Positions 32,968 to 49,951 are shown, numbered from the stretch's first letter. The stretch is DNA of 57,870 bases from Candidatus Margulisiibacteriota bacterium (GCA_041658645.1 JBAZZV010000010.1:1-57870), one strand, 5' to 3'. Numbers and translations: made by a program. Notes: generated from the letters alone by a model not told the origin.

Positions 32968-32991
32968 TTGTCCGCCTTTCCTTTTCATCTT

Positions 32992-34229: not shown

Positions 34230-34274
34230 AGTTTCCCCCCATTTTTACGTCATTCGCCCCTCGTTTCCCAGGCC

Positions 34275-34454
34275 TCACCTCCTGTTCCTTGATTTCCATT
34301 GCCATAAAGCGGTTAAAACAGCCCATCCAAATTTAAATGGCCCAAAAAGATATACTCCCCGATCTTTTTCAAGCACTTCGTGCCTTCCCCCCTGAAACCG
34401 GGAAAAATATAACTCAAGATACTTTCCAAACCTTGATTCTTCTTTTTCCGCCAT
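34275..34454 (-). CDS. possible small ORF (MAEKEESRFGKYLELYFSRFQGGRHEVLEKDRGVYLFGPFKFGWAVLTALWQWKSRNRR)
   Basis: Hand-translated ~59-aa ORF with an AGGAGG RBS. Not in the ORF track. Confidence 0.25.
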   Translation of the reverse strand: MAEKEESRFGKYLELYFSRFQGGRHEVLEKDRGVYLFGPFKFGWAVLTALWQWKSRNRR

Positions 34455-34468
34455 AATAAGCCTCCTAA

Positions 34469-35161: not shown

Positions 35162-35297
35162 CTGCCTCGCTTTTTAGGGAAGTGCTGCCGCCTTCCTCTA
35201 CTATCTTCCCTACCACATTAATAATGTTCCCGATCCCCTCAAAGACCTGATTTATTCCAAGACTGGAAATAAGGGTTTTTTCGTCTTCGGCCGTCAT
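35123..35297 (-). CDS. possible small protein sharing the FEG.G...VVGK motif with the Hsp20/GvpH-like N-terminus
   Basis: Hand-translated MTAEDEKTLISSLGINQVFEGIGNIINVVGKIVEEGGSTSLKSE.... Its ATG overlaps the upstream stop (ATGA). Confidence 0.3.
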
Positions 35298-35617
35298 AAT
35301 CTCACCTCGGGCATCAGCTTCTTTTTCTGCAATACTTGCTGACGAAGATCCAGCATGTATTTTTGCCTGGCTTCCCTTCTTCTGATTCTCTGCATCCTTA
35401 GATCATTCATAAGTCTTTTAAGCTCTGCTCGCCTTTTTTCTCGATCTTCGCGAAAACCTTCGAAGATTTCAGTAACTTTTGCCTGGCGCAGATCTCGATC
35501 TTCTTCCGCGATCTCTCTTGCCAAAACTGCCTCAGGCTCAATTAGTTTTATGCCCTGCCTCACCGGCACGCGGGCGGCAGGCCTGGTTTTTGTCTGTCTT
35601 TTTTTCTTCCTAGGCAT
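35294..35617 (-). CDS. highly charged (R/K/E-rich) hypothetical protein
   Basis: 107 aa, predicted coiled-coil, within the gvp cluster. Confidence 0.4.
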   Translation of the reverse strand: MPRKKKRQTKTRPAARVPVRQGIKLIEPEAVLAREIAEEDRDLRQAKVTEIFEGFREDREKRRAELKRLMNDLRMQRIRRREARQKYMLDLRQQVLQKKKLMPEVRL

Positions 35618-35634
35618 TTTAAGATACCTCCTTT

Positions 35635-35931
35635 CTAGCCCATTACCTTGGCTTCCAATTTTTCTAACCGTTTTTGAAGCGTTTTATTTTCTTCTTCCAG
35701 CTTTTTAGCCTGCGAAGAAATAAAAGAATCCTGCTGCCACCAGTCAATCCCAATCTCCATCGCCTTTTCCACCGAACACACCAGAAGTCTAATCTTAATA
35801 TTTAACAGGTCTACATCCGCGAGCGAGATCTTAATATCGCCGGCAATGACAATTCCCTTGTCCAGAACCCTTTCTAAGATATCCGCTAAATTCGTAGCAT
35901 TGGTCGCGTGGGCCATTCCTTGCATAACCAT
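35635..35931 (-). CDS. gvpJ: GvpA-family gas vesicle protein (GvpJ/GvpM-like)
   Basis: LADILERVLDKGIVIAGDIKISLADVDLLNIKIRLLV...GIDWW is the GvpA/J/M core. AAGGAGGG RBS. Confidence 0.8.
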   Translation of the reverse strand: MVMQGMAHATNATNLADILERVLDKGIVIAGDIKISLADVDLLNIKIRLLVCSVEKAMEIGIDWWQQDSFISSQAKKLEEENKTLQKRLEKLEAKVMG

Positions 35932-35950
35932 AATTTTCTTCCCTCCTTTT

Positions 35951-36211
35951 TTACGCTATTTTACTAGCTTTAATTACCAGTTCTGCGGTTTTCTTGCGTA
36001 AATTAATTATATTTCTACAAATCTCGCAGACTGAACTGCCTTGATCATATTCCAGGCATTTAAGCAGAGGAGTGAGTTCATTTATTAAAAGCTGGGCTCT
36101 ATTGCCTTTTACTTTAGGATCACGGGTCTCATTTAAACTCCGGGTTATTTCTCTTGTTTTGCGTTCCTTTTGTTGGAAAATTCCGCAGTTTACTTTTTCT
36201 TCTTCAGACAT
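35951..36211 (-). CDS. hypothetical protein (gvp cluster)
   Basis: 86 aa with a CxxC. Good RBS. Confidence 0.4.
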   Translation of the reverse strand: MSEEEKVNCGIFQQKERKTREITRSLNETRDPKVKGNRAQLLINELTPLLKCLEYDQGSSVCEICRNIINLRKKTAELVIKASKIA

Positions 36212-36221
36212 GTTCCCCCCT

Positions 36222-36578
36222 TCACATTAAATCTCCTAACGGCCCGAGATTCAGATTCAGCTCTTCGTCTTTTACATTAAATATTTCTTTTAACTCTGCC
36301 ATTTTCTTATCAAGCTTTATAAAAGTTTCGCCCATTTTCTCGATTTGTTCATCAGTTAAAGAGCCACTTTCAACTCTTCGCGCCGCTTGTTTTTCCATGA
36401 GTTTCCTGATTAGCTCTATCAGGGTTAAGACCAGCTTTGCCAATCCCTGTTCTACCTGTTTAGGATCAATATTAATTCTCTCCGCGGATTTAAGCTTCAC
36501 CGCGGAATCCTGCATCTCTGCCGGATCCTCCATTACTATCGTTAAAGAACTGGATCCATGCCCTGCACTATCCGGCAT
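36222..36578 (-). CDS. gvpK: gas vesicle protein GvpK
   Basis: INIDPKQVEQGLAKLVLTLIELIRKLMEKQAARRVESGSLTDEQIEKMG...LNLNLGPLGDLM matches the GvpK pattern. Confidence 0.75.
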   Translation of the reverse strand: MPDSAGHGSSSLTIVMEDPAEMQDSAVKLKSAERINIDPKQVEQGLAKLVLTLIELIRKLMEKQAARRVESGSLTDEQIEKMGETFIKLDKKMAELKEIFNVKDEELNLNLGPLGDLM

Positions 36579-36579
36579 T

Positions 36580-36783
36580 TTAAGTTGACTCCTTCATGCG
36601 CGCAACTTCGTACTTTTCCATGGTTTCAACCGAAGAGACCAGAACCCGCAAGCCGATGTAAACCAGATCAATATCGGCCACCGAAATAACAATATCTCCC
36701 GCCACAACCGCTCCTTTGTGCAAGACCCGATCCAGCGCTTCAACCAGAGTTACTTCTTTCTTCTCATAATAAGGCCCGGTCAT
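36580..36783 (-). CDS. small GvpA-family protein (GvpS/GvpM-like)
   Basis: LVEALDRVLHKGAVVAGDIVISVADIDLVYIGLRVLVSSVETMEKY. Confidence 0.75.
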   Translation of the reverse strand: MTGPYYEKKEVTLVEALDRVLHKGAVVAGDIVISVADIDLVYIGLRVLVSSVETMEKYEVARMKEST

Positions 36784-37562
36784 TTCCCCTCCAAACTAGC
36801 GAAGCTGTAAGCTGGCCATGGGCCGGATATCTCCAGTTCCAGGCCGGAAGCCGCATAGGTTTTCTGTAAATCCGACACTCTAGATTTAAACTCGGAGACT
36901 TTCTTTTTCGGAATTAAATAGGCGCCGTTTAAAATCGTCTCGGCCTCCTTTATAGTCAGCTCTTTGGGCTGTAGTTTATTCAAACAATTTTTATCCGCGA
37001 ACTTCACCAGTTCTTCGTGAATAGCGGCGGCATCTTCGTTCATCTTTTTTTCGCTCTCTTCAAAAATCAAACTGGCTCTTTTCCTTTTTAAGAAATACGC
37101 CGCGCCTTCTGATTTATCTTTTATCGCCAAATCAATATCCTTGATATGCTGATTGCTGCGCGCAAGCTCTTCTTTTAATTTATTGGCATCACAATAAACT
37201 TTTACTCCCCATTCCTCTTTTCCATCAAGATTTAAAATAATCTCCAGGAAACCCTGGTAATTTTTCTCAAGCATAGCTTCAAGCGATTTGGCGGTTTTAA
37301 AGATGGTCCCGAATTTTATGGGAACAACTGCCGTCTTTTCTGCAAGGCGAGAAATTATATTATTATGATGCATAACTTTTTCTTCCAGCCATTTAGGATC
37401 TTTCTCAACCTTAAGTTTAAATGCCTCTTCTTGAAAATCATCAATAGTTGTTTTTTCAACCACCGCCGCTATATCTTTGTAAGAGATAGTCTGACTCCCC
37501 TCTCCCGCAAAATTTGATTGCGAAGCAGCGATTAGGCAAAATAAACAAAGTCCTTGCTCCAT
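36780..37562 (-). CDS. gvpL: GvpL/GvpF family gas vesicle protein (paralog 1)
   Basis: MEQGLCLFCLIA... N-terminus and the GPWPAYSF signature. Confidence 0.8.
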   Translation of the reverse strand: MEQGLCLFCLIAASQSNFAGEGSQTISYKDIAAVVEKTTIDDFQEEAFKLKVEKDPKWLEEKVMHHNNIISRLAEKTAVVPIKFGTIFKTAKSLEAMLEKNYQGFLEIILNLDGKEEWGVKVYCDANKLKEELARSNQHIKDIDLAIKDKSEGAAYFLKRKRASLIFEESEKKMNEDAAAIHEELVKFADKNCLNKLQPKELTIKEAETILNGAYLIPKKKVSEFKSRVSDLQKTYAASGLELEISGPWPAYSFASLEGK

Positions 37563-37583
37563 ATTTTTTATTCCTTATTGGTT

Positions 37584-37838
37584 TTATTCATGCCGATCGT
37601 AAGAAGTAATAGTTAAATCTTTATCCAAAACCACATCGTATTGATGTTTTTCCATTATCTTCTTGCCGATGGCTTTCATAGATTCACTTTCTTCCACCAC
37701 CTCAACCCTGGCCTCCCAACCGGTATCCACAACAGAGGTCTTGACCACAAAGGCATTGGGTTTCTTAAGCGTCTTCTTAAAGAAATTTTCAACCGTTTCG
37801 GTCGCGGCTACAACATCACCTTTTGTTTTTTCAGCCAT
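37584..37838 (-). CDS. gvpO: probable gas vesicle protein GvpO
   Basis: VVKTSVVDTGWEARVEVVEESESM...YDVVLDKDLTITSYDRHE fits the GvpO pattern. AGGAGGG RBS before MAEKTKG. Confidence 0.55.
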   Translation of the reverse strand: MAEKTKGDVVAATETVENFFKKTLKKPNAFVVKTSVVDTGWEARVEVVEESESMKAIGKKIMEKHQYDVVLDKDLTITSYDRHE

Positions 37839-37854
37839 TTTAATTCCCTCCTTT

Positions 37855-38049
37855 TTATTTTCCGCCTTTGGCGGAAACTTTGGTTCCACATTTTGGACAA
37901 TACTTATAGTCGTAGCTAAACCTCCAGTGATGCCCGCATTCAGAGCATCTTATGGTAAGCGCCTCTCCGCAATTAGGACAATTATCATGGTCGCTATAAG
38001 TTGTGGTTTTACATTTTGGACATTTAAAGGGACCGGTTCCTTCCCCCAT
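37855..38049 (-). CDS. double zinc-ribbon protein
   Basis: CPKC...CPNC and CSEC...CPKC pairs. GGAGGAGG RBS. Confidence 0.5.
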   Translation of the reverse strand: MGEGTGPFKCPKCKTTTYSDHDNCPNCGEALTIRCSECGHHWRFSYDYKYCPKCGTKVSAKGGK

Positions 38050-38220
38050 TCTTATTCACCTCCTCCAGCACTTTCTTTCTTCCCTTCAATCTTTTCCTTT
38101 TCGGCTTCCAACTTTTCGGTTAACTTTCTAGTTTTCCCAACAAATTTCCCTACTATTTCTGCAGGCGCCAAGGAAGGCTAACAAGACAATATCATGGAGG
38201 CTCAAAGGCAAAAATGTCAT

Positions 38221-38466
38221 TTATTCTTCTTCTCCTTCTTTGTATTTTCGAATGGCTTCCAAGCGCTCCATTATTTTCGTTTCTCTCTTTTGATACTCAT
38301 CTTCGGTAATCTCCCCCATATCTAAAAGGGTTTGGGCTTCTAATAACGCCTGTTGAGGCTTGGCTTCATCGGAAAGCTCCTCATCGACTTGGGTCTTTAT
38401 CGCCTCAAAGATCCCCATAAATCCCTGGACCGGCAGCATTAATATATCATCGATTATAAATGCCAT
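38221..38466 (-). CDS. gvpG: gas vesicle protein GvpG
   Basis: MAFIIDDILMLPVQGFMGIFEAIKTQVDEELSDE...LLDMGEITEDEYQKRETKIMERLEAIR. Confidence 0.7.
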   Translation of the reverse strand: MAFIIDDILMLPVQGFMGIFEAIKTQVDEELSDEAKPQQALLEAQTLLDMGEITEDEYQKRETKIMERLEAIRKYKEGEEE

Positions 38467-38566
38467 ATCAAAAATCCCAATGTCAAATGGATGTCCGCCT
38501 TAGGCGGATTATTTAAATAATTTATTCCATCATTTGTCATTTTTAATTGGTCATTGGCCATTAATT

Positions 38567-39301
38567 TCAAAACATCAGCTCCACATTGGCGAAATTATAG
38601 GGCGCCAGCGGCCCGACATATTTCAAATTTATTCGATCCTTATGCTGTTCGTGGATTTTATTCACTAATTCGTCAAAATCTTTTTCTTTCTCCTTCTCCA
38701 CCAAAAAGGCCGCATTCATTAGCCAGGGATCGCCATAGGTAGAATTCAACTTATAATCAACCGCCAATTTCTTAAATTTTCCCAGCAAGTCTTCAACTTC
38801 CTTTTCTTTTTTTATCTTTAAAAGTTCCTCAACTCTTCTTCCAATCTCCATTAAATTTGGATGGGGGGAACTTTTTAATTTTTTTATCTCCGGCGTTTCA
38901 GCAATTTCGGCAAAGATCGGTTCCAGAGCCGTCCACATGACCCGCAAGCCCAGTTCTACTTTACCCTTCATATTTTTAATCATATCCTTCAAGGTTGCTT
39001 CAAAGCGTTTTAATCCCTTTTCTACTACTTCCGCTTCACTCTTCGCAACAGTGCAAAAGCGCACCGGAAGCGCGGTAAATTCTTGCATAGCTTCCTCAAC
39101 CACCAGTTCATGCGGCATCAAATTCTCCCGCAAGGCTTGATACCTCATCTTGGGCGAGCGACTTACGACTGCGCCCAGCCCATCAAAAGAAATGGCATAA
39201 ACCCTGTCACTCCGGCCTCCGATACCCGGAGTCTTAAACTCTTTTCCCTCTTTAGGGTTATCTATAATGCAATAGACATATATACCCTCTTCGCCTGTCA
39301 T
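38567..39301 (-). CDS. gvpF: GvpL/GvpF family protein (paralog 2)
   Basis: GIYVYCIID... and GPLAPYNF. Confidence 0.8.
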   Translation of the reverse strand: MTGEEGIYVYCIIDNPKEGKEFKTPGIGGRSDRVYAISFDGLGAVVSRSPKMRYQALRENLMPHELVVEEAMQEFTALPVRFCTVAKSEAEVVEKGLKRFEATLKDMIKNMKGKVELGLRVMWTALEPIFAEIAETPEIKKLKSSPHPNLMEIGRRVEELLKIKKEKEVEDLLGKFKKLAVDYKLNSTYGDPWLMNAAFLVEKEKEKDFDELVNKIHEQHKDRINLKYVGPLAPYNFANVELMF

Positions 39302-40407
39302 TTTTCCTTTGCCTCATCGGACAGCGCCGCTACCAGAGCGCCTTTGGCTACCGTGCGCAAAGGCTGGGATGCCATCCGCACTGATTTTATGGCTAAGGGA
39401 AATTTAGATCGCTCCAAAATGCTTTTAAACCTGTCTGAAAATCCGGGAGGCAAAGAAGTTCCCCCTGATAAAATAATAGAAAGGGGTTTATCAAGGCGCG
39501 GCATCTTTTTGTTCTTTTCAAATTCCCTTTTTATGTTTTCAATAACATATTCAATGAGATGACTGTAATAGATAGATAAGGCGCTTTCTATTCTGGATAG
39601 GCCGGTTTCCTTGGATAGATCAAGACTGGTTTCTTTAATAGCAGAGATGCGGCTCGCAGTTTCATCGACACTCAAAGCTACCTGCTGATCAATCCAGTCC
39701 CCGGCCTTGGTAACGCTAAAGGCAACTATGGGAACGGAAAGGTAGGAAAGGCACATATTGACCATGCCGCCGCCAAAAGAAAGTCCGATCCCAGAAAAAT
39801 CTTCATCGCCTAACTCCGCCAGAACTATGGCGTGCGCCTCATTGATTACTTTAGGGGTATAGCCAAGCCTGGCGATAAAACCATAGAGAATTTTCTCATG
39901 ATAGATAACGTTGAAATCAGCATCAATTGGCTCACCGGGGACGGAATAGTAAACGATCTCGCCATCGCGGCGGGGTTTTCCTAAAACGCTTTTAATTAAA
40001 AGTTCTACCATGGGCAAAGCTTCTTTTTCCGAAGGGCTGACAATCCCTTTCTGGAGCGGTCGGCGGGTATCTTTGTGGAAAATATTGGCAAATTCCAGAG
40101 CTTCATCTCCCACTACGTACAGCTTGTTATCTTTGATAATATACTTAACCCGGGAATTATCCAGCATATTGCGGGTAAAATCCGTGTGTTCTACCTCAAA
40201 GAAGGCATCTCGCTGAGATCTAAAGATGATGGAATCGCCGTTTTTCTCCGCGAATTTTATAAAACAGGTCCCAATGTCTATCCCCTTACCATATTCTGCC
40301 TGCCTGCCTGCCCGTCCGGCAGGCACGGCTTTCTCGATTACCTTAACCATCTTTGCAACCTTCTTTTTAACTTTTCCGCCTTTGGCGAACTTTTTCCCCT
40401 TTACCAT
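39298..40407 (-). CDS. actin/Hsp70-fold ATPase (Hsp70-NBD/MreB/EutJ-like) with a Lys-rich N-terminal tail
   Basis: Phosphate-1 GKGIDIGTCFIKFA, connect/phosphate-2 VINEAHAIVLAELGDEDFSGIGLSFGGGMVNMCL, and adenosine motif SIILSGGTSLPPGFSDRF. The GGTSLPP and INE..A motifs look more Hsp70/MreB-like than ParM-like. Strong RBS. Confidence 0.65.
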   Translation of the reverse strand: MVKGKKFAKGGKVKKKVAKMVKVIEKAVPAGRAGRQAEYGKGIDIGTCFIKFAEKNGDSIIFRSQRDAFFEVEHTDFTRNMLDNSRVKYIIKDNKLYVVGDEALEFANIFHKDTRRPLQKGIVSPSEKEALPMVELLIKSVLGKPRRDGEIVYYSVPGEPIDADFNVIYHEKILYGFIARLGYTPKVINEAHAIVLAELGDEDFSGIGLSFGGGMVNMCLSYLSVPIVAFSVTKAGDWIDQQVALSVDETASRISAIKETSLDLSKETGLSRIESALSIYYSHLIEYVIENIKREFEKNKKMPRLDKPLSIILSGGTSLPPGFSDRFKSILERSKFPLAIKSVRMASQPLRTVAKGALVAALSDEAKEK

Positions 40408-40410
40408 AAC

Positions 40411-40932
40411 TTACCTCCCTTTTGCCTTTTTAAACGCTTCGACCGCGCCTCCGAGGTTAAACTTGTCTTTCTCATCAGTTGTAACCTTTTCAAGATTACT
40501 TTCCATCTTTACCTCCTCTAATTCTATCGGCGGAATGAAACTGGTTTTAATTTGAATTCTTTTCTCCTCATCTTCTGTCTCTCTTAGCCTTCTGACACCG
40601 GGACGATAAGACCCGCTTCTGACAATCCTCTCTTTAACCGGCAAGGCCCCTATTTCACGGGCAACTTCTTTGGCAACTCCTTTAGCGACTTCCTCCAGCA
40701 TTGACTTATCTACGATAAACTTCCAACCCTCACCCGATAAAAGCTTTGCTCCTTTGGGAGCCAGAGCAAAATATTTGCCCTCATTTACCCTCAAATATCC
40801 TTGTCGAATAAGGGATTTACAAACCAGATCCGCATAACCAGGAGATATTCCTAATCTTTGGGTAATCAAACTTCTCCCGGCCTTACCCTTTTCTCCGACA
40901 ACCTTTAATATCTCTTGTTCAGTTGTTCCCAT
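40411..40932 (-). CDS. winged-helix (MarR/PadR-like) DNA-binding protein with an acidic C-terminal extension
   Basis: EQEILKVVGEKGKAGRSLITQRLGISPGYADLVCKSLIRQGYLRVNEGKYFALAPKG. GGTGAGG RBS before MGTTEQ. Confidence 0.5.
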   Translation of the reverse strand: MGTTEQEILKVVGEKGKAGRSLITQRLGISPGYADLVCKSLIRQGYLRVNEGKYFALAPKGAKLLSGEGWKFIVDKSMLEEVAKGVAKEVAREIGALPVKERIVRSGSYRPGVRRLRETEDEEKRIQIKTSFIPPIELEEVKMESNLEKVTTDEKDKFNLGGAVEAFKKAKGR

Positions 40933-40973
40933 CCTCACCCACCATTCGCTTCGCTCATAAGCCCGCCACCCCA

Positions 40974-41969
40974 CTAGGTGGGGAGAGTAAGCTTTTTAAC
41001 CGAAAATAAATCACAACCGTTGCTCGTATATTCATATAAAAGATCAAAAGCCTTTTTTAACTCCACAAATTGCTTGGCGGCCTCCGGATTATCTGGATTT
41101 TTGTCGGGGTGAAGCTTTCCGGCCATGGCACGGTAGGCCCGTTTAACCTCTTCCGGAGGGGGATCTTCTACTATTCCCAAAACTGCCTTGGCATAGAAAA
41201 TTTCATCCGGAGTTAATTTCTTTATCTCAATAGTGGCAAAACTGTAAGGGGGCAGAGGGCCTACGCACTTAAAGTTTATTTTACCCTCATACTTTCTATC
41301 TAATTCCGCTAGTTCCTGTTCAAAGACCTCCTTTTTATCTTTATCAAGCAAAAAAGCTGTATTGAAAATCATCCTGTCATTTAAAGTAGCATGCTTACAA
41401 AAAGCGCCAGCTTGTCCGCCAGAGGCGGACAAAGCCGTGATTATCTCCTCGGCAATTCTATCTTTTTTTCTATCCAGGAAATCTTTAACCATTTTTCCAA
41501 GGATTATGCCACCCTGAATTCTTTCGCCGGGAGGCTTTTGAGTAACCTCGTCTTTGAAGCATTGAATCTCTGCTATTTCTCCTATCTCTTTTAAGACGCC
41601 ATTCATCTCATTCCAAATGCCCACCAAATCCAATTCGATTTTCCCGCTTAAGGTTTCCATAATTTCTTTAAATAGTTTATAGCCCTTTTTCATTATTCTT
41701 TGAGTTTCGTTATCTCCGTCTATAAAAGTTCCAAATTTGAGAGGAACAACTGAATAATTCTGCATGACTTTTTCAATGATAGATTGATGTCTAAGCAGGT
41801 AATTTACTAGCTCATCTTTGCGCAGAGTCGCGAAAGGAATTGGTTTACTATCACTTACTACCAAAGAAATATCTTCATAAGGGATAGTAAAAATCTCCCC
41901 ACCGATCCCCTGGATATCAAAGGTCTGCAGCTTATTGTCCGGGATGACACAATAGAGGTATTTCATCAA
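40974..41969 (-). CDS. GvpL/GvpF family protein (paralog 3) fused to a C-terminal J-domain
   Basis: [11 protein letters not shown]... and VGPLPPYSF (GvpF), followed by EEVKRAYRAMAGKLHPDKNPDNPEAAKQFVELKKAFDLL, a DnaJ J-domain with the HPD tripeptide. Confidence 0.75.
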   Translation of the reverse strand: MMKYLYCVIPDNKLQTFDIQGIGGEIFTIPYEDISLVVSDSKPIPFATLRKDELVNYLLRHQSIIEKVMQNYSVVPLKFGTFIDGDNETQRIMKKGYKLFKEIMETLSGKIELDLVGIWNEMNGVLKEIGEIAEIQCFKDEVTQKPPGERIQGGIILGKMVKDFLDRKKDRIAEEIITALSASGGQAGAFCKHATLNDRMIFNTAFLLDKDKKEVFEQELAELDRKYEGKINFKCVGPLPPYSFATIEIKKLTPDEIFYAKAVLGIVEDPPPEEVKRAYRAMAGKLHPDKNPDNPEAAKQFVELKKAFDLLYEYTSNGCDLFSVKKLTLPT

Positions 41970-44143
41970 CTCACCCCCGCTTCTCCTCTTCTCTTATAAA
42001 GAGAGGGGGATGGGGGATGAGTTTTTATTTCCTTGATCGCCTGACTAAAATAGGGCCTATCAATTTCAAACTTCGAATAATCCAGTTTCCTGCCCTTAGC
42101 TTTATCGATAAAATCTCTAATCGCTAACATAGATGCTCGCCGGCAAATAGCTTCGATGTCGGCGCCGGAAAGCTCCCCGGTCTTTTCAGCCAATTCGGAA
42201 AAATCAACCTCTTTAGCTAAAGGCTTATCTTTGGCATGGATTTTAAAAATCTCGACTCTGGTCTTCTTATCCGGCAAAGGCAGTTCAAACTTCAGATCAA
42301 ACCGGCCTGAACGGAGCAAGGCGGAATCGACCATATCAAAACGATTGGTAGCGGCTAAAACAACCACTCCTTTAAGCTCTTCAATGCCATCCAGTTCAGT
42401 TAAAAACTGACTGATAACGCGCTGGGCAACTTGAGAATCTCCTCCCCCGGCTCCGCGAACAGGGACCACGCTTTCGATTTCATCAAAAAACAAAATAGTC
42501 GGCGCCGCTTGTTTGGCTTTTTTAAAGATCTCGCGGACAGCCCGCTCGGAATCACCCACATATTTAGACATAAGTTCAGGGCCTTTAACTGAAATAAAAT
42601 TCACCCCGCTCTCTTTGGCTAAGGCCTTGGCCAAAAGAGTTTTCCCGGTGCCGGGAGCGCCATAAAGCAAAATCCCTTTAGAGGGCTTAGTCGCGGCTTT
42701 TTCAAACATTTGAGGATATTCCAGCGGCCACTGAATGGTTTCTTTTAGGTTTTCCTTGATCTCATCCAGCCCGCCGATATCCTCCCAACCCACCTCCGGG
42801 ACCTCCACAAAGACTTCACGAATAGCCGAGGGCTCCACCTCTTTCATCGCCTCCATAAAATTATCCATGGTAACTTCAAGTTTCATAATTTTTTCATAAG
42901 GGATCTCCGCTACGGCAAAATCCAATTGAGGAAATAATATACGCAAGGAGGCCATAGCCGCTTCGCGGCAGAGCGCCTCAAGGTCGGCGCCCACAAAACC
43001 ATGGGTGATAGCAGCTAATTTTTCCGAATTAACATCTTTGGCTAGCGGCATGCCCCGGGTATTGATGTTTAAAATTTCCAATCTGCCGTTTTTATCCGGG
43101 ATAGGAATGCTTATTTCCCGGTCAAATCTGCCGGGACGACGCAGAGCCGGGTCAATGACATTGGGAATATTAGTCGCGGCGATCACAATTAGCTGACCCC
43201 GGGACGCCAGTCCATCCATCAGCGCTAATAGTTGCGCCACCACTCTTTTTTCAACCTGTTTTTCGCCGCCCATTTCTTCTCTTTTGGGAGCGATGGAATC
43301 AATTTCATCAATAAATAGTATCGCCGGAGCATGAGCCGCGGCATCTTCAAAGACTTCGCGTAGTCTGCCTTCTGATTCACCATAAAATTTCCCCATGATC
43401 TCCGGCCCGGAAATGCTGGTAAAATAAGCGTCAGTTTCACTGGCCACGGCGCGAGCAATCAGGGTTTTGCCGCAGCCGGGAGGCCCGTAAAGAAATACCC
43501 CTTTGGGAGCTTCAATTCCCAATCTCTCAAAAATTTGCGGATACTTAAGAGGGAGTTCGATCATTTCCCTGATTTTCCGTATTTCTTTATGTAAGCCGCC
43601 AACATCCTCATAAGTTACCCGATGCGGCCCAGCTTTAGACGCTCCTTCCGTTTTTAATTTAATTTGGGTGGTAGGAGCAATAACTACAATTCCCTCCGGA
43701 ACTGCTTCTATTACTTTAAACTCCTGATATTTGGTCCCAAAAAGGAGTGCTCTGACTCGATTTCCCGCTATAAGAGGAATGCCTTCAAGTATCCGCCCCA
43801 TATAGCGGGTATCCTGGGAAGCCATAAGGGTTAAGGGTTGAACGGTAATGCGGGTGGCAGGCTGACTTTTAGCCGGACTTACTTTTACTTTTTCATCCAG
43901 GCCCACTCCGGCATTATCTCTGATAATTCCGTCAATTTGTATGAGCCCCTTTCCCCGATCTTCGGCAAAACAGGGCATTACTTTTGCGGGAGTTGATTTC
44001 TTACCCTTTATCTCGATAATTTCTCCAACCTCTACCCCGATATCTTTCATATCATCAGGATCGATGCGGGCAATGGCCCGACCCACATCTTTAGAGAGGG
44101 ATTCGGAGACCTTTAGGGTTAATGTTTCTTTTTTCTTTGCCAT
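41966..44143 (-). CDS. Cdc48/VAT/p97-like double AAA+ ATPase
   Basis: Cdc48-N-like domain plus two AAA modules (GPPGCGKT...DEID and GAPGTGKT...DEIE, with SRH regions). The track ORF extends to 44200. [12 protein letters not shown] at 44143 is the likely start. Confidence 0.85.
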
Positions 44144-44154
44144 AATTCTTAAAA

Positions 44155-44214
44155 TGTAGGGACAACCCTTGTGGTTGTCCGTTTTTTCGGACAGGGACAA
44201 GCCCTGTCCCTACA
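44155..44214. repeat. paired hairpin element (A+B) filling the hsp20-cdc48 intergenic gap
   Basis: tgtagGGACAAcccttgtggTTGTCCg tttttt cGGACAGGGacaagCCCTGTCCctaca. The outer tgtagggaca/tgtccctaca arms are also complementary. Confidence 0.6.
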
Positions 44215-44216
44215 AT

Positions 44217-44750
44217 TCATTTTTGTATCTTTATCTCCAAAACCCCATTCTTATAGGTTGACGCCATTGTTTCAGCTTTAACTTTTGAAGGGAGCAGAAC
44301 TTCTTTGTGATACTTCCTGTCGCCTTTTGCGGCAGAAATATCCAGGATATCTTCTTTGAGATCAAGCTTGATATCAGTTTCTTCAATCCCCGGCATCTCC
44401 ACCACCAGCAAGACGTGATCCTTCTCATCGAAAATATCGACCTCCGGTTCCCTTTCTTCTTCGACCACGGTTTTGCCTTCAGGGGTACGATGGATGTTGC
44501 CGAAGGAAGAGACTTTGGGCCCGCCTTTGGCCATGGTATTGATCGTGAAACCATACATCATTTTACCTTTCTTGCCGCCTAAACCCTCAATATCTATTGC
44601 CCCCGTTTTTTTAAGCTCTTCGCCCTTTTCCGCTAGTTTTCCTACAACATCAAGCAAACTTCCCAATCCCTCAAATATCCCACCCAGGTTAAATCCTGCT
44701 TCGACTTTTGGTTCCTCTTTTTTACCTTTTTTCTCTTTTGCCATTTTCAC
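44217..44750 (-). CDS. Hsp20/alpha-crystallin family protein (GvpH-like)
   Basis: ACD: DIFDEKDHVLLVVEMPGIEETDIKLDLKEDILDISA...GVLEIKI. GTG start overlapping the gvpF stop. Confidence 0.8.
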   Translation of the reverse strand: MKMAKEKKGKKEEPKVEAGFNLGGIFEGLGSLLDVVGKLAEKGEELKKTGAIDIEGLGGKKGKMMYGFTINTMAKGGPKVSSFGNIHRTPEGKTVVEEEREPEVDIFDEKDHVLLVVEMPGIEETDIKLDLKEDILDISAAKGDRKYHKEVLLPSKVKAETMASTYKNGVLEIKIQK

Positions 44751-45496
44751 TCATCCTCCTTTATTACAACATTCACAAAATTATACGGCGGCAGGGGACC
44801 AACATATTTAAACTGCGCCCGTCCGCCTTTGGCGGAGTATTTTTTATCCAGCTCATCAACCAAAGTATCAAATTCCATTTCGCGAGCTTTATCGACTAAA
44901 AAAGCGGCGTTGAGAAACATATTTTCAGTCAAAAGTTTTCCTAAGGCGATATTATAGGCGCTGTGGCGCAAATGAGTGAGGATTTCTTCCCCCTCCTCTT
45001 CTTTTTTCTTTTCAAGCAACCTCTCAACCAACTTTCCAGCTTCAATTTGTTCCTCCAAGCCCGAAGCCCCTTTCTTCTTTTTTGCGCTAACTTCAGGGCT
45101 GTTGGCAATTTCTTTATAGATTACTTTCATGTCTTTCCAGAATGCCTTGAGCCCCAGCTCAACTTTACCGTCCATATCCCGCAAAAGACTTTTAAACTCA
45201 CTATGTCTTTTCCCTAGAAGATTTCTTATCTCGTCGGCGCTTTCGGCAATACTGCAAAACCGAACCGGAAGCACGGTAAATTCCTGCATTACTTTTTCGA
45301 TTGCCTTTTCATGGGCAATTAAATTATCCCGGCTCAAAGTATATTTTGTCATGGGGGTATTGCTGACCACGGCCGAAAGACCTTCGCAAGAAATAGTTGT
45401 CACCTCATCCCCTCGCCCGCCAATACCAATGGAACCAAAGTTACAAGGGAAGTTCGTTTCAATAATGCAGTAAATGTATTTTCCCTCTTTATCCAA
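44747..45496 (-). CDS. gvpF: GvpL/GvpF family protein (paralog 4)
   Basis: GKYIYCIIE... and VGPLPPYNF. Confidence 0.8.
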   Translation of the reverse strand: MDKEGKYIYCIIETNFPCNFGSIGIGGRGDEVTTISCEGLSAVVSNTPMTKYTLSRDNLIAHEKAIEKVMQEFTVLPVRFCSIAESADEIRNLLGKRHSEFKSLLRDMDGKVELGLKAFWKDMKVIYKEIANSPEVSAKKKKGASGLEEQIEAGKLVERLLEKKKEEEGEEILTHLRHSAYNIALGKLLTENMFLNAAFLVDKAREMEFDTLVDELDKKYSAKGGRAQFKYVGPLPPYNFVNVVIKEDE

Positions 45497-45866
45497 CAGT
45501 TACACTCCCTTTTCCATGACAGGCCAGACAGGGCAGGCCGCTTAAAGCTGATCCTCTGCCCCTACATTGCTTACATGTTTTAATTGGCTCTTTAATTGGA
45601 ACTACTCCTTTCCCATGACAGACGACACAGGAGAAAAAGCTCCTGGGGTTTTTCATTCCCCGCCCCCCGCAATAAGCACAAACTACAACCGGCGGTTGTA
45701 CGGTGATGGTTCCTTTTCCGCCGCACGCCGGACATTTAGCTTTTTGAGTAGTACCAACTAAGCCTTTCCCGCCGCAAAAAGCGCAGATAAAATCGCTTTT
45801 ATGTAAAATCTGCCCTTTCCGTTTATCTAAACCTTTTTTCCAATCATAAGCAATCCACTCTTCCAT
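45489..45866 (-). CDS. DnaJ-type CR zinc-finger protein (6x CxxCxGxG)
   Basis: CAFCGGKG, CPACGGKG, CAYCGGRG, CVVCHGKG, CKQCRGRG, CLACHGKG. Confidence 0.65.
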   Translation of the reverse strand: MEEWIAYDWKKGLDKRKGQILHKSDFICAFCGGKGLVGTTQKAKCPACGGKGTITVQPPVVVCAYCGGRGMKNPRSFFSCVVCHGKGVVPIKEPIKTCKQCRGRGSALSGLPCLACHGKGSVTVG

Positions 45867-45867
45867 A

Positions 45868-46221
45868 CTAATATTGTAGGGCCATTCTTTGCCATTTAGG
45901 GACGCCTTGAGGGGCGCCTGTGGCCGGCAGACTTTTGCGCCTAGCCCTGCCGCCGGCGGTAAGTTGGCCCGCTTCGGCCGCCTGTAGTTTCCGGCTTTCC
46001 TTTTCTATGTCAGCTAAGCGCCGCTGAATTATTGTTTTGCGGCGTTCAACGATTGAACTTTCTTTCTCGAGTCGTTCTCTCTCTTTTCCCAGCATATATA
46101 AATCCAGGAAAGTCGAGTCTTGATTGCCTCGAGGAATAGAACGCCTGCCCGTAGAATGCAGCGTCCGCAGGCCATGAAGACCGGCGATGTTCACGGCCCC
46201 GTTTTTGCGCCGCTCTTTCAT
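45868..46221 (-). CDS. hypothetical basic/coiled-coil protein (gvp cluster)
   Basis: 117 aa, overlapping both neighbours. No family recognised. Confidence 0.4.
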   Translation of the reverse strand: MKERRKNGAVNIAGLHGLRTLHSTGRRSIPRGNQDSTFLDLYMLGKERERLEKESSIVERRKTIIQRRLADIEKESRKLQAAEAGQLTAGGRARRKSLPATGAPQGVPKWQRMALQY

Positions 46222-47150
46222 ATTTTCACCCCCTCGTAATGCTTATTAATTAACTCATTAACAAGTTTCCTGACTTTAGCCTGATTGGTTCTGCTACCCA
46301 CGCGGCTGGTCTCGGACGCCAGGATGTCAGTGCAAATTTCCCGGAAGATCCCTTTATCGGCATCGTGAGTTCCATTAAGCACCTTTAAACTCTTAGCAAT
46401 CATGATGCAGCCGCGAATGGTGGGAGCAAACTCGCATTTTCCGGATCCCCGCAGAGCTCGCACAATCCCTACAATTTCCCCGGCTTTATCCTTAGATATT
46501 TTTGCTTTAGCGGCAGTAATATCTATCTCTGTTTCTTCATCATAATGATCCAGATCCATAGTAATCATGCGGTCGCGCAGGGCATCCTGACTGCGGTGTA
46601 CCCCGGCGTATTCTTCAGGGTTGCTGGTAAAGATGGCGGTAAACTCCGGGTCGACCCGAAGATAGGACTCTCCTCCTCCTCGACCAACCGGCAAATCCAT
46701 TATCTTTTCCTGCAAAATAGAAAGCAAGATATTATTAGCTTCCGGACGGGAGCGGGTAAACTCATCATATATTAATGTAAAGCCGTATTTACAGGCCACC
46801 GTTAAGCGGTTATCCACCCAGCGCTTAACCATATCTTCTTCCACTTTCAAAACACGCGAGATAAAGCGATCCACCACTTTTCGGATCCGGTAGCCGTATT
46901 CACCACCCACTAAATCAGAGGTTTTAAACTCTTCATCCCCATGAATAAGCACCACGGGCCGGCCGATTTTGCTGGCAATGTGCATCGCCAGGGTGGTTTT
47001 ACCCGTCCCCGCACCCCCGCGAAAATGGATAGGAAACCCCGCTTTTATATAAACCATAGACCGATCAGCCAATTCTTTCACCTGTTTTGTCTCCACAAAA
47101 TCGGGCATCGACTTTGGGTCCAAAACGGTAGTCATTTCATCGATGGACAT
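46218..47150 (-). CDS. gvpN: gas vesicle protein GvpN (MoxR/CbbQ-like AAA+)
   Basis: Walker A FRGGAGTGKTTLAMHIA, Walker B LIYDEFTR, 310 aa. AAAAGGAGG RBS. Confidence 0.85.
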   Translation of the reverse strand: MSIDEMTTVLDPKSMPDFVETKQVKELADRSMVYIKAGFPIHFRGGAGTGKTTLAMHIASKIGRPVVLIHGDEEFKTSDLVGGEYGYRIRKVVDRFISRVLKVEEDMVKRWVDNRLTVACKYGFTLIYDEFTRSRPEANNILLSILQEKIMDLPVGRGGGESYLRVDPEFTAIFTSNPEEYAGVHRSQDALRDRMITMDLDHYDEETEIDITAAKAKISKDKAGEIVGIVRALRGSGKCEFAPTIRGCIMIAKSLKVLNGTHDADKGIFREICTDILASETSRVGSRTNQAKVRKLVNELINKHYEGVKI

Positions 47151-47170
47151 TTTTTTACCTCCTTTTTTTT

Positions 47171-47230
47171 CGGACAGGGATAAACCCTGTCCCTACATGA
47201 TAATGTAGGGACAACCCTTGTGGTTGTCCG
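47171..47230. repeat. paired hairpin element (B'+A') upstream of gvpN
   Basis: cGGACAGGGataaaCCCTGTCCctaca tgataa tgtagGGACAAcccttgtggTTGTCCg, the same family as 44155-44214 in the opposite order. Confidence 0.6.
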
Positions 47231-47236
47231 TAAAAT

Positions 47237-47557
47237 CTATTTCCCTACCAACCCAGTCCCCTGACACTCAAGACACGGAAGATCGCCTTTGCCTATATTG
47301 CGTCCGGTGCCCTTACAGGCAGAACACTTTTTATCACTGCGCTTACCTGGAATTACTCCCTTGCCCCGGCAGGCAATGCAGGTATTGCGGGTTTGGGGTT
47401 GGACCCCGCTTCCCCCGCAATATGCACAGTCTACATAGGGTTCTTCAACCGTAACCTGCCCGGCGTCACCGCAAACCTGGCAGTTAGCCAACTCCGAGAG
47501 AAGGTCAAAAGGATCTTTGCCCGTGCCTTTACAAAAGGCACATTTTATTTTCGGCAT
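47237..47557 (-). CDS. DnaJ-type CR zinc-finger protein (6x CxxCxGxG)
   Basis: CAFCKGTG, CQVCGDAG, CAYCGGSG, CIACRGKG, CSACKGTG, CLECQGTG. Confidence 0.65.
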   Translation of the reverse strand: MPKIKCAFCKGTGKDPFDLLSELANCQVCGDAGQVTVEEPYVDCAYCGGSGVQPQTRNTCIACRGKGVIPGKRSDKKCSACKGTGRNIGKGDLPCLECQGTGLVGK

Positions 47558-47572
47558 AACCTTGCCCTCCTT

Positions 47573-48229
47573 TTAGCTCTTTCTCGGTCTTCCTCTTTTA
47601 CCTTTTTTCTTTGGCTTAGCGGATTCTTCTACTGTCTTAACTTCTATGCCCGCGGCAATGGGTTTGCCTTTTTCAATTTTTATAGCAACCCCATGCCTAG
47701 CTTTTTCCATCTGCTCCGCCATTTTCTGCCAGGCACCGCTTGCCGCTGTCATGTCATCCTTAACCTCAGCCAAATAACTACTTACTTCTTTATCTATTTC
47801 CATTATTCTCTTCTGAATTCCAGATAACATGGCCTTGAAATCTTTCAACCTATTCGTTTCTCCAGTCTTCAATGCTTCTTCAAGAGCTTCAGCCATTTCC
47901 TTATGCTCCTTCTGAAGTTCTTTAAGCATTCTCTTTACATTGCTGACTAAATCTTCAGCAAATTTGGCTAGATCCTTTGCCTGTGCGGTAGCCATCTTCC
48001 TGTGGTCGCCAGCAAAACCCTTTAATAGGCCACTGGTTGTATCCACCAAATCACCCACAAAGGAACTTAAATCTTTCCTTTGCTCCGCACCCATTTTCAC
48101 CCGATCCCGGTTAAAGCCCTTAAGGGTATCATGGGTATCTGAAAAAATATTCCCTAAAACACTTATTCTGGCATCATAATCGCCTACAATTTTATCCGCT
48201 AAACTTTTCATCTCTTGTGCAATTGACAT
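47573..48229 (-). CDS. GvpC-like repeat protein (33-residue repeats) with a basic AT-hook-like C-terminus
   Basis: LKGFNRDRVKMGAEQRKDLSSFVGDLV and LKGFAGDHRKMATAQAKDLAKFAEDLV lie 33 residues apart. C-terminal KKKGKRGRPRKS. Confidence 0.5.
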   Translation of the reverse strand: MSIAQEMKSLADKIVGDYDARISVLGNIFSDTHDTLKGFNRDRVKMGAEQRKDLSSFVGDLVDTTSGLLKGFAGDHRKMATAQAKDLAKFAEDLVSNVKRMLKELQKEHKEMAEALEEALKTGETNRLKDFKAMLSGIQKRIMEIDKEVSSYLAEVKDDMTAASGAWQKMAEQMEKARHGVAIKIEKGKPIAAGIEVKTVEESAKPKKKGKRGRPRKS

Positions 48230-48284
48230 TTCCCTTACCTCCTCTTATTTGACATAAACTTTCGAATCCCTGTCTGCCGGCAGG

Positions 48285-49040
48285 CTATTTTGTGGCAGTC
48301 ATCACCCCCTTTCCTCCTACGCCCTTCCACCTTCGCTCTTCGAGCTCCGGCGGACAAGCCGGGCTTCGGAGGACACGCTTTTTCGCCATGGTTAAAGATA
48401 AACTGCGCCAGGACCCGGCTGCGGCTATCCTTTCTTCCTGAAAGCCCTTGAGCATGGCTTTAAAGTCTCTTATTCTTATGGTTTCGCCTTTACTTAAAAG
48501 CCCCCTTATTCCTTTCGCCAACTCCTCATTTTCTTTACGATATTCGGCAACTTGGGCCTGGAAACCCTTAAGCATTTTTGTTACTTGATCCTGCCGCGCC
48601 AGCTGCTGCTTTTTAATTTCAGAGAACTTGGCCTTAAACTCGTCCAGCCGAATTTGCTCACCGGCGACTAATTGTTTATTGAAATCCGCAAATCCTTCCT
48701 TTAATGTCCCGGCAACCGCCTTTTGCTCCGCCAGATAATCTTCCAAAAGTTTCTTTACCTCTTTTTCCCGATTGCTTTGCTCTTCCAAAATCCCCCGCAT
48801 CATTTGATCAAAATCCTTATGCCGCAGGGAGTCGGTTTTGGCCAATTTCTCACGGAGTTCTTTGCTTAACGATTCTCTTTCTTCCCGGGTTTCAAGCAGG
48901 GCTTTTTGAAAACCATCCAGCATTTGGTGGGTATCAGAAAAAATGCATTCTATCGAAGCGATGCGGTCTTCATAAGAAGAAATAACATCACAAGCAAGGA
49001 ACTGCATCTTTTCCGCGACATTTGATACGCCGTCAACCAT
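48285..49040 (-). CDS. GvpC-like repeat protein (paralog)
   Basis: Repeated MLDGFQ / TLKEGF / MLKGFQ and R.(D/E)FKA units. Shares the N-terminal IFSDTH..L.GF with the 47573 protein. Confidence 0.5.
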   Translation of the reverse strand: MVDGVSNVAEKMQFLACDVISSYEDRIASIECIFSDTHQMLDGFQKALLETREERESLSKELREKLAKTDSLRHKDFDQMMRGILEEQSNREKEVKKLLEDYLAEQKAVAGTLKEGFADFNKQLVAGEQIRLDEFKAKFSEIKKQQLARQDQVTKMLKGFQAQVAEYRKENEELAKGIRGLLSKGETIRIRDFKAMLKGFQEERIAAAGSWRSLSLTMAKKRVLRSPACPPELEERRWKGVGGKGVMTATK

Positions 49041-49134
49041 TTCTACCTCCGATTATTTTAAGAAAGATTCCTGGTGCAGAATGCCTTATTCCGGGATTCC
49101 TCAGCAAGAATCGTTCCCATAAGTTTCAAGAAAC

Positions 49135-49344
49135 TTACGCTGCTGCGGTTGCCGTGAGGCCTACTGCTTCAGCATATTTCAAGAATGTCTCAACACCGGC
49201 GACCACAACTCTGGCTTCAATCGCCAGAAGCTCGATCCCGACTAAGGATATCCTTACCCACGCGTCAATCACGATGCCCTTATCGAGAATGCGATCGATG
49301 ACTTCTACCAAGCTGGAACTTCCAATTGCTTTTTCAACTGCCAT
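49135..49344 (-). CDS. gvpA: gas vesicle structural protein GvpA
   Basis: [64 protein letters not shown] is near-identical to canonical GvpA. AAAGGAGGTGA RBS. Confidence 0.95.
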
Positions 49345-49375
49345 GTTTTTTCACCTCCTTTTGTTTATAATATAA

Positions 49376-49405
49376 TGTAGGGCAAGGGCTTATCCCTTGC
49401 CGAAC
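49376..49405. repeat. single hairpin element of the same family upstream of gvpA
   Basis: tgtagGGCAAGGGcttatCCCTTGCCgaac. On the minus strand the hairpin is followed by CTACATTATATTATAAA, ~40 nt before the gvpA RBS. Confidence 0.5.
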
Positions 49406-49642
49406 TCCCTTAATCAATAATCATCATAAATTTGGGATTCTGTTTCTTTTATGGCTGTTTTTAACAGGCCAAGAATGCCTAAAAGTTTCCGCAACCACTT
49501 AAACATTCTCATTTTCCAATTTCCGGGTTGATTTTATAGTCATAAATAAAGAAAAAACCAAGGCTGTATAAAGGCATACCTTAGCTTTTCCGAAAAATTA
49601 AGTTTGGTGAAGCTCGCGGAAATCCGCGAATTTTTATTTTCC

Positions 49643-49694
<52 letters not shown>

Positions 49695-49951
49695 ACTATT
49701 TAATCTATCACTCATCATTATGATGAGATCACTCATCGGTAATTGTGTGTTCATTTTTTTACTTCTCTTTCCTTCCGAGCTTCCACCTCCGCACTCTAAG
49801 CGGACAGGTCGAAGAGCCAGGCAGTAATTTACATTACTACTAAGGAAGTATATGGCATTTAGCCCATTTGTCAAGTTGTTTTTGACCTATGGGCTATTCT
49901 TCTCTTATACCCAATTGGCTTAGACTGTAAGCCTGGAAGGAGGAATAATAA

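Follow-up and report, generated by a model that had tools for sequence, protein, structure and literature searches.

Results

The stretch of DNA analyzed here (the window; 57,870 nucleotides, GCA_041658645.1 JBAZZV010000010.1:1-57870, from a Candidatus Margulisiibacteriota bacterium) carries a gas-vesicle (gvp) gene cluster, within which one gene encodes a full Cdc48/VAT-type AAA+ ATPase. An earlier reading made from the sequence alone (the sequence-only reading) had placed this gene at 41966-44200, and a mechanical open reading frame (ORF) of 744 amino acids (aa) does occupy that interval on the minus strand, but its TTG start at 44200 is spurious. The TTG sits within a hairpin repeat, whereas the N-termini of homologues and the NCBI annotation (MFA4844532.1, a 725-aa 'CDC48 family AAA ATPase') agree with an ATG at 44143, which is therefore probably the true start. 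The likely coding sequence of 725 aa, 41966-44143 on the minus strand, ends in a TGA (41966-41968) that overlaps the ATG of the following gene, a fusion of GvpF/L and a J domain (GvpF/L::J), as TGATG. The encoded protein is divided as follows.

43637-44119, minus strand: N domain (CDC48_N plus CDC48_2, Pfam), residues ~9-169 of the 725-aa form, the family-specific part
42809-43627, minus strand: D1 AAA module, with Walker A GPPGCGKT (K226), pore loop K-F253-Y254-G, Walker B D279/E280 and the arginine-finger segment RRPGRFDRE (335-343)
42074-42808, minus strand: D2 AAA module, with Walker A GAPGTGKT (K501), pore loop K-Y528-V-G, Walker B D554/E555 and arginine fingers R611/R614
41969-42073, minus strand: variable C-terminal tail without a terminal HbYX (alignment of family C-termini)

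The order proposed from the sequence alone, a Cdc48-N-like domain followed by D1 and D2 with Walker A/B and second region of homology (SRH) motifs, was recovered by profile searches above the respective cut-offs. Pfam assigned PF02359 CDC48_N (92.6 bits; cut-off, 35.1), PF02933 CDC48_2 (28.4 bits; cut-off, 22.4), two AAA domains and two AAA_lid_3 domains to the ORF, and TIGR01243 'CDC48 family AAA ATPase' scored 908.2 bits against a cut-off of 802.65 (residues 28-726, model positions 3-711 of 733). Among solved structures Thermoplasma VAT scored best (5g4f, 709 bits; alignment spanning the N domain through the end of D2), ahead of plant CDC48A, human p97 and yeast Cdc48. An AlphaFold monomer model matched p97/Cdc48 chains over the full length (Foldseek E ~1e-69, 44% identity to p97), with acceptable D1 and D2 and an N domain of low confidence (predicted local distance difference test, pLDDT, 43-69), from which no conclusion about an adaptor cleft is therefore drawn. 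The alternatives named in the sequence-only reading, an FtsH- or ClpB-type enzyme, scored far under the cut-offs: TIGR01241 (FtsH) reached 495 bits (cut-off, 600) through the AAA modules only, with no peptidase domain in the Pfam scan, and TIGR02639 (ClpA) reached 45.8 bits (cut-off, 993), with no Clp_N domain to indicate a member of the ClpA/ClpB/Hsp100 group. The NCBIfam models for PAN, CdvC and ClpX likewise remained under their cut-offs. The distinction drawn earlier between this protein and GvpN, the usual ATPase of gas-vesicle clusters, is also sound, in that GvpN has its own gene (46218-47150; TIGR02640) and TIGR02640 is not among the best 25 of the 56 NCBIfam families that match the Cdc48 protein at E<=0.001.

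Among 82 members of the gvp-linked family defined below, the Walker A lysines, the Walker B Asp-Glu pairs and the arginine fingers (D1, R335-R342; D2, R611/R614) are invariant or nearly so, and the pore loops follow K-[F/Y]-Y-G in D1 and K-[Y/W/F]-[V/I]-G in D2. Aromatic loops in both rings are a signature from which substrate threading via both rings would be predicted, and VAT itself has been caught in the act of threading a substrate (PMC5423775). The HbYX motif ([LVIMGAPFYW][FY]x$), necessary for docking of archaeal Cdc48 on the 20S proteasome (PMC3493965), was found in 0/73 complete C-termini of the family, and the window protein ends ...RRGEAGVS; proteasome coupling of the family was rejected on this basis, and the enzyme in all likelihood acts by itself or together with a partner other than the proteasome. 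Pairwise identity inside the family is 55% for the N domain, 80% for D1 and 68% for D2, while the corresponding identities between the window protein and VAT are 27%, 64% and 56%. It is thus the N domain that distinguishes the family, which suggests a conserved, family-specific client or adaptor.

Distribution and phylogeny

A homologue search yielded at least 8000 proteins at E<=1e-50, and a scan of one genome per species gave the best 80 loci (60-71% identical). All 80 are bacterial and come from more than 15 phyla (Nitrospirota, Latescibacterota, Clostridia, Planctomycetota, Cloacimonadota, Acidobacteriota/Aminicenantes, Omnitrophota, Desulfobacterota, Actinomycetota, Victivallales, Atribacterota, Dehalococcoidia, Bacteroidota, Elusimicrobiota, Marinimicrobia, Ignavibacteria, Acetothermia and others), including the cultured Desulfoluna spongiiphila AA1; to call the architecture uncommon in bacteria, as had been done from the sequence alone, was an overstatement. 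When the window Gvp proteins served as tblastn queries, 71/80 loci proved to contain one or more bona fide gvp families and 70/80 two or more, and a cluster gene was present in 75/80 once Hsp20 and a conserved 230-aa protein (see below) were counted. The five empty loci comprise four Synergistales and one 3-kb contig.

The typical gene order is Hsp20 - (ArsA) - Cdc48 - GvpF/L(::J domain), and the ~70%-identical homologues from Nitrospirota and Omnitrophota lie in syntenic clusters (GvpA...GvpN...Hsp20 - ArsA-like ATPase - Cdc48 - GvpF/L::DnaJ - GvpF/L). A GvpF/L gene on the same strand follows Cdc48 immediately in 60/76 loci, at a distance of -10..+15 nucleotides (nt) from stop to start in 22/63, while Hsp20 lies within 1.8 kb upstream in 57/69 loci and an ArsA-like ATPase gene intervenes between the two in 22/69. 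As many of the loci are truncated contigs, these partner frequencies are lower bounds. A plasmid collection was searched as a smaller second sample. It extended the linkage to a more divergent group: the complete gvp clusters of Methylocella tundrae T4 (54% identity) and Methylosinus sp. C49 (50%) have Hsp20/'gvpH' - hypothetical - 'CDC48 family AAA ATPase' as their last genes. Membership of the Cdc48 gene in the gas-vesicle operon, rather than in an unrelated neighboring one, is borne out by its co-directional position among gvp genes, by the stop/start overlap with the GvpF/L::J gene and by the gvp linkage in 71/80 species; one type of bacterial gvp operon, itself widespread, includes the enzyme as an integral component.

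Trees were quick distance trees. In a neighbor-joining tree of 165 sequences the gvp-linked family formed its own bacterial group, inside which identity is 57% or higher (median, 67%), with no outside sequence above 58%. A bootstrapped tree of 134 taxa gave weak support, of only 43% to the family clade and 16.5% to its union with the methanotroph pair. By identity this pair stands nearest the family, which it adjoins in the tree. The nearest outsiders by average identity include VAT and a Thermoplasmatota protein (54%), and the nearest outgroup representatives are unlabelled metagenome proteins; one close representative is from Dadabacteria. A haloarchaeal Hsp20-linked pair falls elsewhere in the tree, as do two solitary Cdc48-family ATPases of 47-49% identity on alphaproteobacterial megaplasmids (L095 and L096, from Methylobacterium radiotolerans and Rhizobium leguminosarum), which group with VAT-like sequences and not with the gvp-linked family and suggest separate bacterial acquisitions of Cdc48. 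Synergistales copies (L080, L084; 8.6-15 kb) branch inside the gvp-linked family, yet their neighborhood is a conserved housekeeping one, with a class I/II aminotransferase gene on one side, the gene for a TPR-SLT lytic transglycosylase on the other and no gvp gene closer than 10 kb; here the gene has apparently escaped from a gas-vesicle cluster.

Operon structure and partner genes

The gvp island (~32150-50000) lies between MutL/topoisomerase I and RlmD, has a strongly negative GC skew and belongs to a low-GC section of the window (~32-50 kb; GC 0.43-0.47 compared to ~0.55 in the flanks). The low GC and the skew of the whole cluster are compatible with horizontal acquisition. From gvpA onward, ~25 minus-strand genes follow one another with short gaps (ORF map, Pfam and NCBIfam), and the features other than the Cdc48 gene are, in the order of transcription:

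49847-49874, minus strand: sigma-70-like promoter upstream of gvpA, TTGACA-16-TATACT, 11/12 matches (consensus match only)
49135-49344, minus strand: GvpA, main shell protein and first gene of the operon (Pfam/NCBIfam)
48285-49040, minus strand: coiled-coil protein
47573-48229, minus strand: coiled-coil protein
47237-47557, minus strand: DnaJ-type cysteine-rich zinc-finger protein, 5 CxxCxGxG motifs (Pfam)
47165-47235, no strand assigned: second copy of a hairpin element, circularly permuted, between the zinc-finger gene and gvpN, 3 kb further upstream than the first
46218-47150, minus strand: GvpN, the canonical gas-vesicle AAA+ ATPase, 310 aa (TIGR02640, 339 bits against a cut-off of 267; AAA_5)
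45868-46221, minus strand: 117-aa protein, no assignment
45489-45866, minus strand: second DnaJ-type zinc-finger protein, 6 CxxCxGxG motifs (Pfam)
44747-45496, minus strand: GvpF/L paralogue upstream of Hsp20 (Pfam)
44217-44750, minus strand: Hsp20/alpha-crystallin small heat-shock protein in a GvpH-like position, directly upstream of Cdc48 (PF00011)
44152-44217, no strand assigned: ~66-nt double-hairpin element, similar to repetitive extragenic palindromes (REP-like), between the Hsp20 stop and the Cdc48 ATG, holding the spurious TTG
40974-41966, minus strand: GvpF/L with a fused C-terminal J domain, HPD at residue 287 (Pfam/NCBIfam)
40411-40974, minus strand: 187-aa protein without a Pfam or NCBIfam match, between the GvpF/L::J and actin genes
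39298-40407, minus strand: volactin-family actin (PF25216, 305 bits; weak MamK-family match; labelled hypothetical by NCBI)
38567-39301, minus strand: GvpF/L (profile match)
38221-38466, minus strand: GvpG (profile match)
37584-37889, minus strand: GvpO, weak match (profile match)
36780-37562, minus strand: GvpF/L (profile match)
36580-36783, minus strand: GvpA-family gene (profile match)
36222-36578, minus strand: GvpK (profile match)
35951-36211, minus strand: 86-aa protein, no assignment
35635-35931, minus strand: GvpJ-like gene (profile match)
34469-35161, minus strand: 230-aa conserved protein with an EreA/ChaN/TraB/Tiki-superfamily fold (fold search)

The adjacency of Cdc48 and Hsp20 (44217-44750) noted from the sequence alone recurs, as described, in 57/69 loci and extends to haloarchaea, where Hsp20 lies directly upstream of Cdc48 on Halobacterium pNRC200 and in Natrinema with no gvp genes near. 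The window Hsp20 matches NF041800 'archaeal Hsp20' (145.5 bits, just above the cut-off of 140), and 'archaeal-type' is a fair description of both Cdc48 and its neighbor, in the sense of type and not of a direct archaeal descent. The Halobacterium genes hsp5 and cdc48d are induced 3.0-fold and 3.4-fold by heat shock (PMC1971269), which supports, by analogy, a putative holdase-plus-unfoldase working pair of Hsp20 and Cdc48, and the haloarchaeal pairs together with this induction suggest that an old pair of this kind was taken into gas-vesicle operons. The same observations could be read as a general stress pair with clients across the whole proteome that merely rides a mobile gas-vesicle island, to which the Synergistales copies outside gvp clusters and the low GC of the window cluster would add. 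Such a purely general role is nonetheless quite improbable, given the fixed position beside GvpF/L in the gvp clusters of 71/80 species, and it also sits poorly with the family's own conserved N domain and with the repetition of the arrangement in the divergent (50-54% identity) methanotroph group.

For the GvpF/L proteins, the relevant precedent is again haloarchaeal: GvpM, a hydrophobic member of the GvpA family, is bound there by GvpF and GvpL and kept from aggregating by the Hsp20-like GvpH (PMC6107691). The GvpF/L coupled to cdc48 has a J domain with an intact HPD and could therefore bring DnaK to Gvp clients. An assembly motor may also be considered, in which the unfoldase would free GvpA-family proteins from chaperone or GvpF/L complexes and feed them to the growing shell, complementing GvpN; cdc48 shares its operon with the assembly genes and is tightly coupled to the gene for a GvpF/L, members of which bind GvpA-family proteins. 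Such a motor is doubtful, however, as clusters without Cdc48 assemble vesicles (that of Octadecabacter and those of the model systems), and the set of Hsp20, J domain and zinc-finger proteins looks like a toolkit for stress or aggregates and not like an insertion machine.

The two zinc-finger proteins consist almost entirely of CxxCxGxG repeats, have homologues in ~35/80 related clusters and, by their motifs, resemble stand-alone DnaJ zinc-finger holdases, which would enlarge the chaperone content of the operon. An ArsA/Get3-type ATPase (PF02374, 279 bits) lies between Hsp20 and Cdc48 in L002 (8871-9815), L005 (9024-10004) and 20 more loci, and no such gene is present in the window. Get3-type proteins chaperone hydrophobic tail anchors, and the presence of one in the module is thus a further hint at hydrophobic clients. 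A related cluster on a 338-kb contig (L088; 1-140, 10726-11442) has its own Hsp70, a double ArsA, a radical-SAM protein and a separate J-domain protein beside a Tiki/TraB-like gene.

The 230-aa protein had no Pfam match and nothing significant in a sequence-profile search of the PDB, and its EreA/ChaN/TraB/Tiki-type alpha/beta fold was recognized by fold search. Its homologues, the closest of which include one from a Saganbacteria metagenome-assembled genome (70% identity), are without exception encoded in the same direction, frequently as immediate neighbors of Cdc48 or next to the GvpF/L gene that follows it; they occur in 39/80 loci, many of the loci being truncated. One locus (L083) has retained it beside Cdc48 as the sole cluster gene; the 'hypothetical' between Hsp20 and Cdc48 in the two methanotroph clusters is again this protein, and the Cdc48-less Octadecabacter cluster lacks it. 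Residues H39, E108, E116 and H176 are invariant in the family and H11 is nearly so; read from the alignment alone, these are candidates for the 2His/2Glu catalytic constellation of the superfamily (PMC6254334). The protein is a candidate hydrolase partner for Cdc48, in a superfamily that also has non-enzymes.

This partner gives rise to the possibility of a dismantling or recycling machine, in which Cdc48 would pull GvpA from collapsed or unwanted shells and the Tiki/TraB-fold protein would cleave it, allowing turnover of a very stable structure. That the 230-aa gene tracks Cdc48, that its product has invariant His, Glu and Asp residues and that the superfamily includes endopeptidases (for example RRSP; PMC6254334) all lend themselves to this explanation, as do the standing question of how collapsed shells are disposed of and the extraction of subunits from stable assemblies by Cdc48/p97 segregases (PMC5468458). 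Yet cdc48 is apparently co-transcribed from the gvpA promoter with no separate regulation evident, the superfamily also holds esterases and non-enzymes (ChaN, PMT), leaving the 2His/2Glu as candidate residues only, and the partner gene occurs in only 39/80 loci; dismantling as the principal role is therefore possible and on balance unlikely. The stronger form of this proposal, that Cdc48, Hsp20 and the Tiki/TraB-fold protein would constitute the first known active dismantler of gas-vesicle shells, cleaving or recycling GvpA from intact or collapsed ribs, is more tentative again. Were it true, carriers, mostly anaerobes of stratified habitats, could switch buoyancy off, and amyloid-like debris could be cleared rather than diluted by growth.

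A regulatory unfoldase that sets the level of a gas-vesicle regulator may be envisaged from the response regulators, sigma-54 activators and HTH gene that flank gvp clusters. In haloarchaea, GvpD controls the level of GvpE. The family lacks a protease-docking motif, however, and its conserved neighbors are chaperones and GvpF/L, not regulators, making a role of this kind very improbable.

Hairpin elements had been reported from the sequence alone on both sides of cdc48, and only the 5' side of this claim stands. The ~66-nt element there (44152-44217; RNA fold -33.8 kcal/mol, z = -5.1) includes a predicted terminator-like hairpin at 44180-44160 on the minus strand; on the 3' side there is no element, as the TGA overlaps the ATG of the next gene. 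Exactly 2 copies of the GC-rich element occur in the window, compared to 0 expected by chance, with their half-units (8-bp stem each) in swapped order (A-B vs B-A). Both copies lie 5' of cdc48 and bracket the block from gvpN to Hsp20, not cdc48 itself. No Rfam match was found across 32-50.5 kb. The double hairpins may be REP-like stabilizers or attenuators of the mRNA within the operon.

The two coiled-coil proteins directly after gvpA, with homologues in 34-41/80 loci and only weak Vps5, ATG17 and apolipophorin matches, may by their position be GvpC-like shell stiffeners. Homologues of the actin (62-71% identity) occupy the same position in Nitrospirota clusters and one Patescibacteria-labelled locus (L002-L004, L008, L010, L072), and weak homologues of the 187-aa protein (~30% identity), which may be an actin-associated adaptor, occur in 8/80 loci, including actin-carrying Nitrospirota clusters and L072. 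Gas vesicles were not a topic in the titles of that part of the volactin literature covered.

The upstream edge of the island carries a small HTH_3 regulator gene (49952-50368, plus strand) flanked by two tracts, a (GT)n run that leads into >30 G (49642-49694) and a second poly-G tract of ~28 G (50310-50338). ENA has an independent assembly of the locus (L001) that stops at ~50320, exactly at the second tract, so that the right island junction is a possible assembly artefact or hypervariable tract. The left junction (MutL, topoisomerase), the basis of the host assignment, was found in both assemblies.

Discussion

The favored reading, given a probability of roughly 0.55, is that the gene product is a VAT-like AAA+ unfoldase or disaggregase with two rings, active and stand-alone, whose dedicated task is the quality control of aggregation-prone gas-vesicle shell proteins. 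The adjacent small heat-shock protein would act as holdase for the client, the translationally coupled GvpF/L would bind GvpA-family proteins while its J domain recruits DnaK, and the Tiki/TraB-fold protein would be a further partner, such that Hsp20, GvpF/L, the Tiki/TraB-fold protein and Cdc48 would form a quality-control module for the very hydrophobic GvpA, GvpJ and GvpM. The family-specific N domain would recognize the client or the client's adaptor, and ATP hydrolysis in D1 and D2 would thread the polypeptide past the aromatic pore loops, extracting subunits from aggregates or from mis-assembled or collapsed shell; the extracted subunits would be refolded, reused or cleaved, with cleavage possibly by the Tiki/TraB-fold protein. 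Within this scheme the analysis establishes which enzyme is encoded and that it is intact, its place in the operon, the conserved partners and the lack of a tail for proteasome docking, and we infer the identity of the client, the roles of the adaptors and the outcome (reuse as opposed to degradation). The apparent co-transcription of cdc48 with the structural genes favors a role during assembly, and it fits quality control at the time of assembly at least as well as recycling; the role suggested from the sequence alone, unfolding or disassembly of gas-vesicle proteins or recycling of vesicles, would be a reasonable one. In the cyanobacterium Dolichospermum, which is without the Cdc48 module, collapse of gas vesicles induces ClpB, DnaK and DnaJ-like genes (bioRxiv 10.64898/2026.05.31.729101).

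Several observations weigh against this reading. The functional links of the gvp-linked Cdc48 family are those of gene neighborhood only, the N domain has low confidence in the AlphaFold model, the J domain is detectable downstream of Cdc48 in only 40/76 loci and the 230-aa protein has the limited distribution given above. The gvp cluster of Octadecabacter arcticus has Hsp20 and no Cdc48, 140 kb separate the gvp cluster of Halobacterium pNRC200 from a Cdc48 gene, and we know of no Cdc48 gene in the model gvp clusters of cyanobacteria, Bacillus megaterium and Serratia; with many working clusters lacking a linked Cdc48, the gene is accessory and not essential for gas-vesicle formation generally. 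The Synergistales copies, nested in the family and free of gvp genes, further imply that the enzyme can serve other clients.

In the open-access full-text literature no paper was found that links a Cdc48-type ATPase with gas vesicles, an absence that is not proof, and databases already label such genes 'CDC48 family AAA ATPase', including those in RefSeq gvp clusters of cultured methanotrophs. The novelty lies in the setting: an enzyme family that is itself known occurs in an organelle-specific context that is conserved and undescribed, and it brings an N domain and a set of partners of its own. The combination of Cdc48, Hsp20 and chaperone-like genes points to a dedicated quality-control or dismantling machine for shell proteins. 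How the hydrophobic shell protein is kept soluble and inserted, and how collapsed shells are removed, are long-standing questions that have been studied only in model clusters lacking the module. Hsp20, Cdc48 and GvpF/L (often J-fused), frequently with the Tiki/TraB-like protein, are concrete candidates for a client-specific unfoldase system, and the carriers of the module span more than 15 phyla and include three or more cultured bacteria. The module could also explain the failure of some mined clusters in heterologous hosts and might provide a genetic 'eraser', or a helper that raises yield, for acoustic reporter genes. For AAA+ biology, it represents a natural bacterial Cdc48 without a proteasome, in which the N domain is apparently specialized for one organelle.

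Comparison with known systems

The closest known system is VAT of Thermoplasma acidophilum and archaeal Cdc48, with the same order of a double-psi-barrel N domain, D1 and D2, 54% overall identity and a D1 pore loop (K-Y-Y-G in VAT, K-F-Y-G here) that is aromatic in both, together with an aromatic D2 loop, as for a processive unfoldase (PMC5423775). Unlike VAT, the window family is without HbYX, has an N domain only 27% identical to that of VAT, is bacterial and resides inside gas-vesicle operons. Eukaryotic p97/VCP/Cdc48 matches over the full length of the sequence (~630 bits) and shares the logic of a segregase, but its D1 pore loop is without aromatics (K-L-A-G), and the ubiquitin system and the UBX and Npl4-Ufd1 adaptors have no counterpart here, where the candidate adaptors are Gvp proteins.

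The haloarchaeal pairs (hsp5-cdc48d on pNRC200 of Halobacterium NRC-1, and that of Natrinema) likewise have Hsp20 directly upstream of Cdc48, but differ in being ~50% identical, unlinked to gvp genes and on another branch of the tree. The triad of ClpB/Hsp104, DnaK/DnaJ and small heat-shock proteins offers a functional analogy only, in that a small heat-shock protein, a J-domain protein and a two-ring AAA+ threader are encoded together; in contrast to ClpB/Hsp104, the window Cdc48 belongs to another AAA+ clade, without Clp_N or M domain. The actin gene inside an organelle operon recalls the MamK-based positioning of magnetosomes.

Amongst gas-vesicle clusters, those of Chlorobi, Bacteroidetes and Geobacter include ArsA and Hsp20 genes (Castillo and Saier 2010; PMC2963123), the same kind of embedding of an accessory ATPase and Hsp20, though that paper makes no mention of a Cdc48-type ATPase and the window is without ArsA. 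GvpN, from the same operon, is also a P-loop AAA+ protein and is thought to act in vesicle growth, but it has a single AAA_5/MoxR-type module and is near-universal in gvp clusters, whereas Cdc48, with its two rings and family-specific N domain, is limited to one cluster type.

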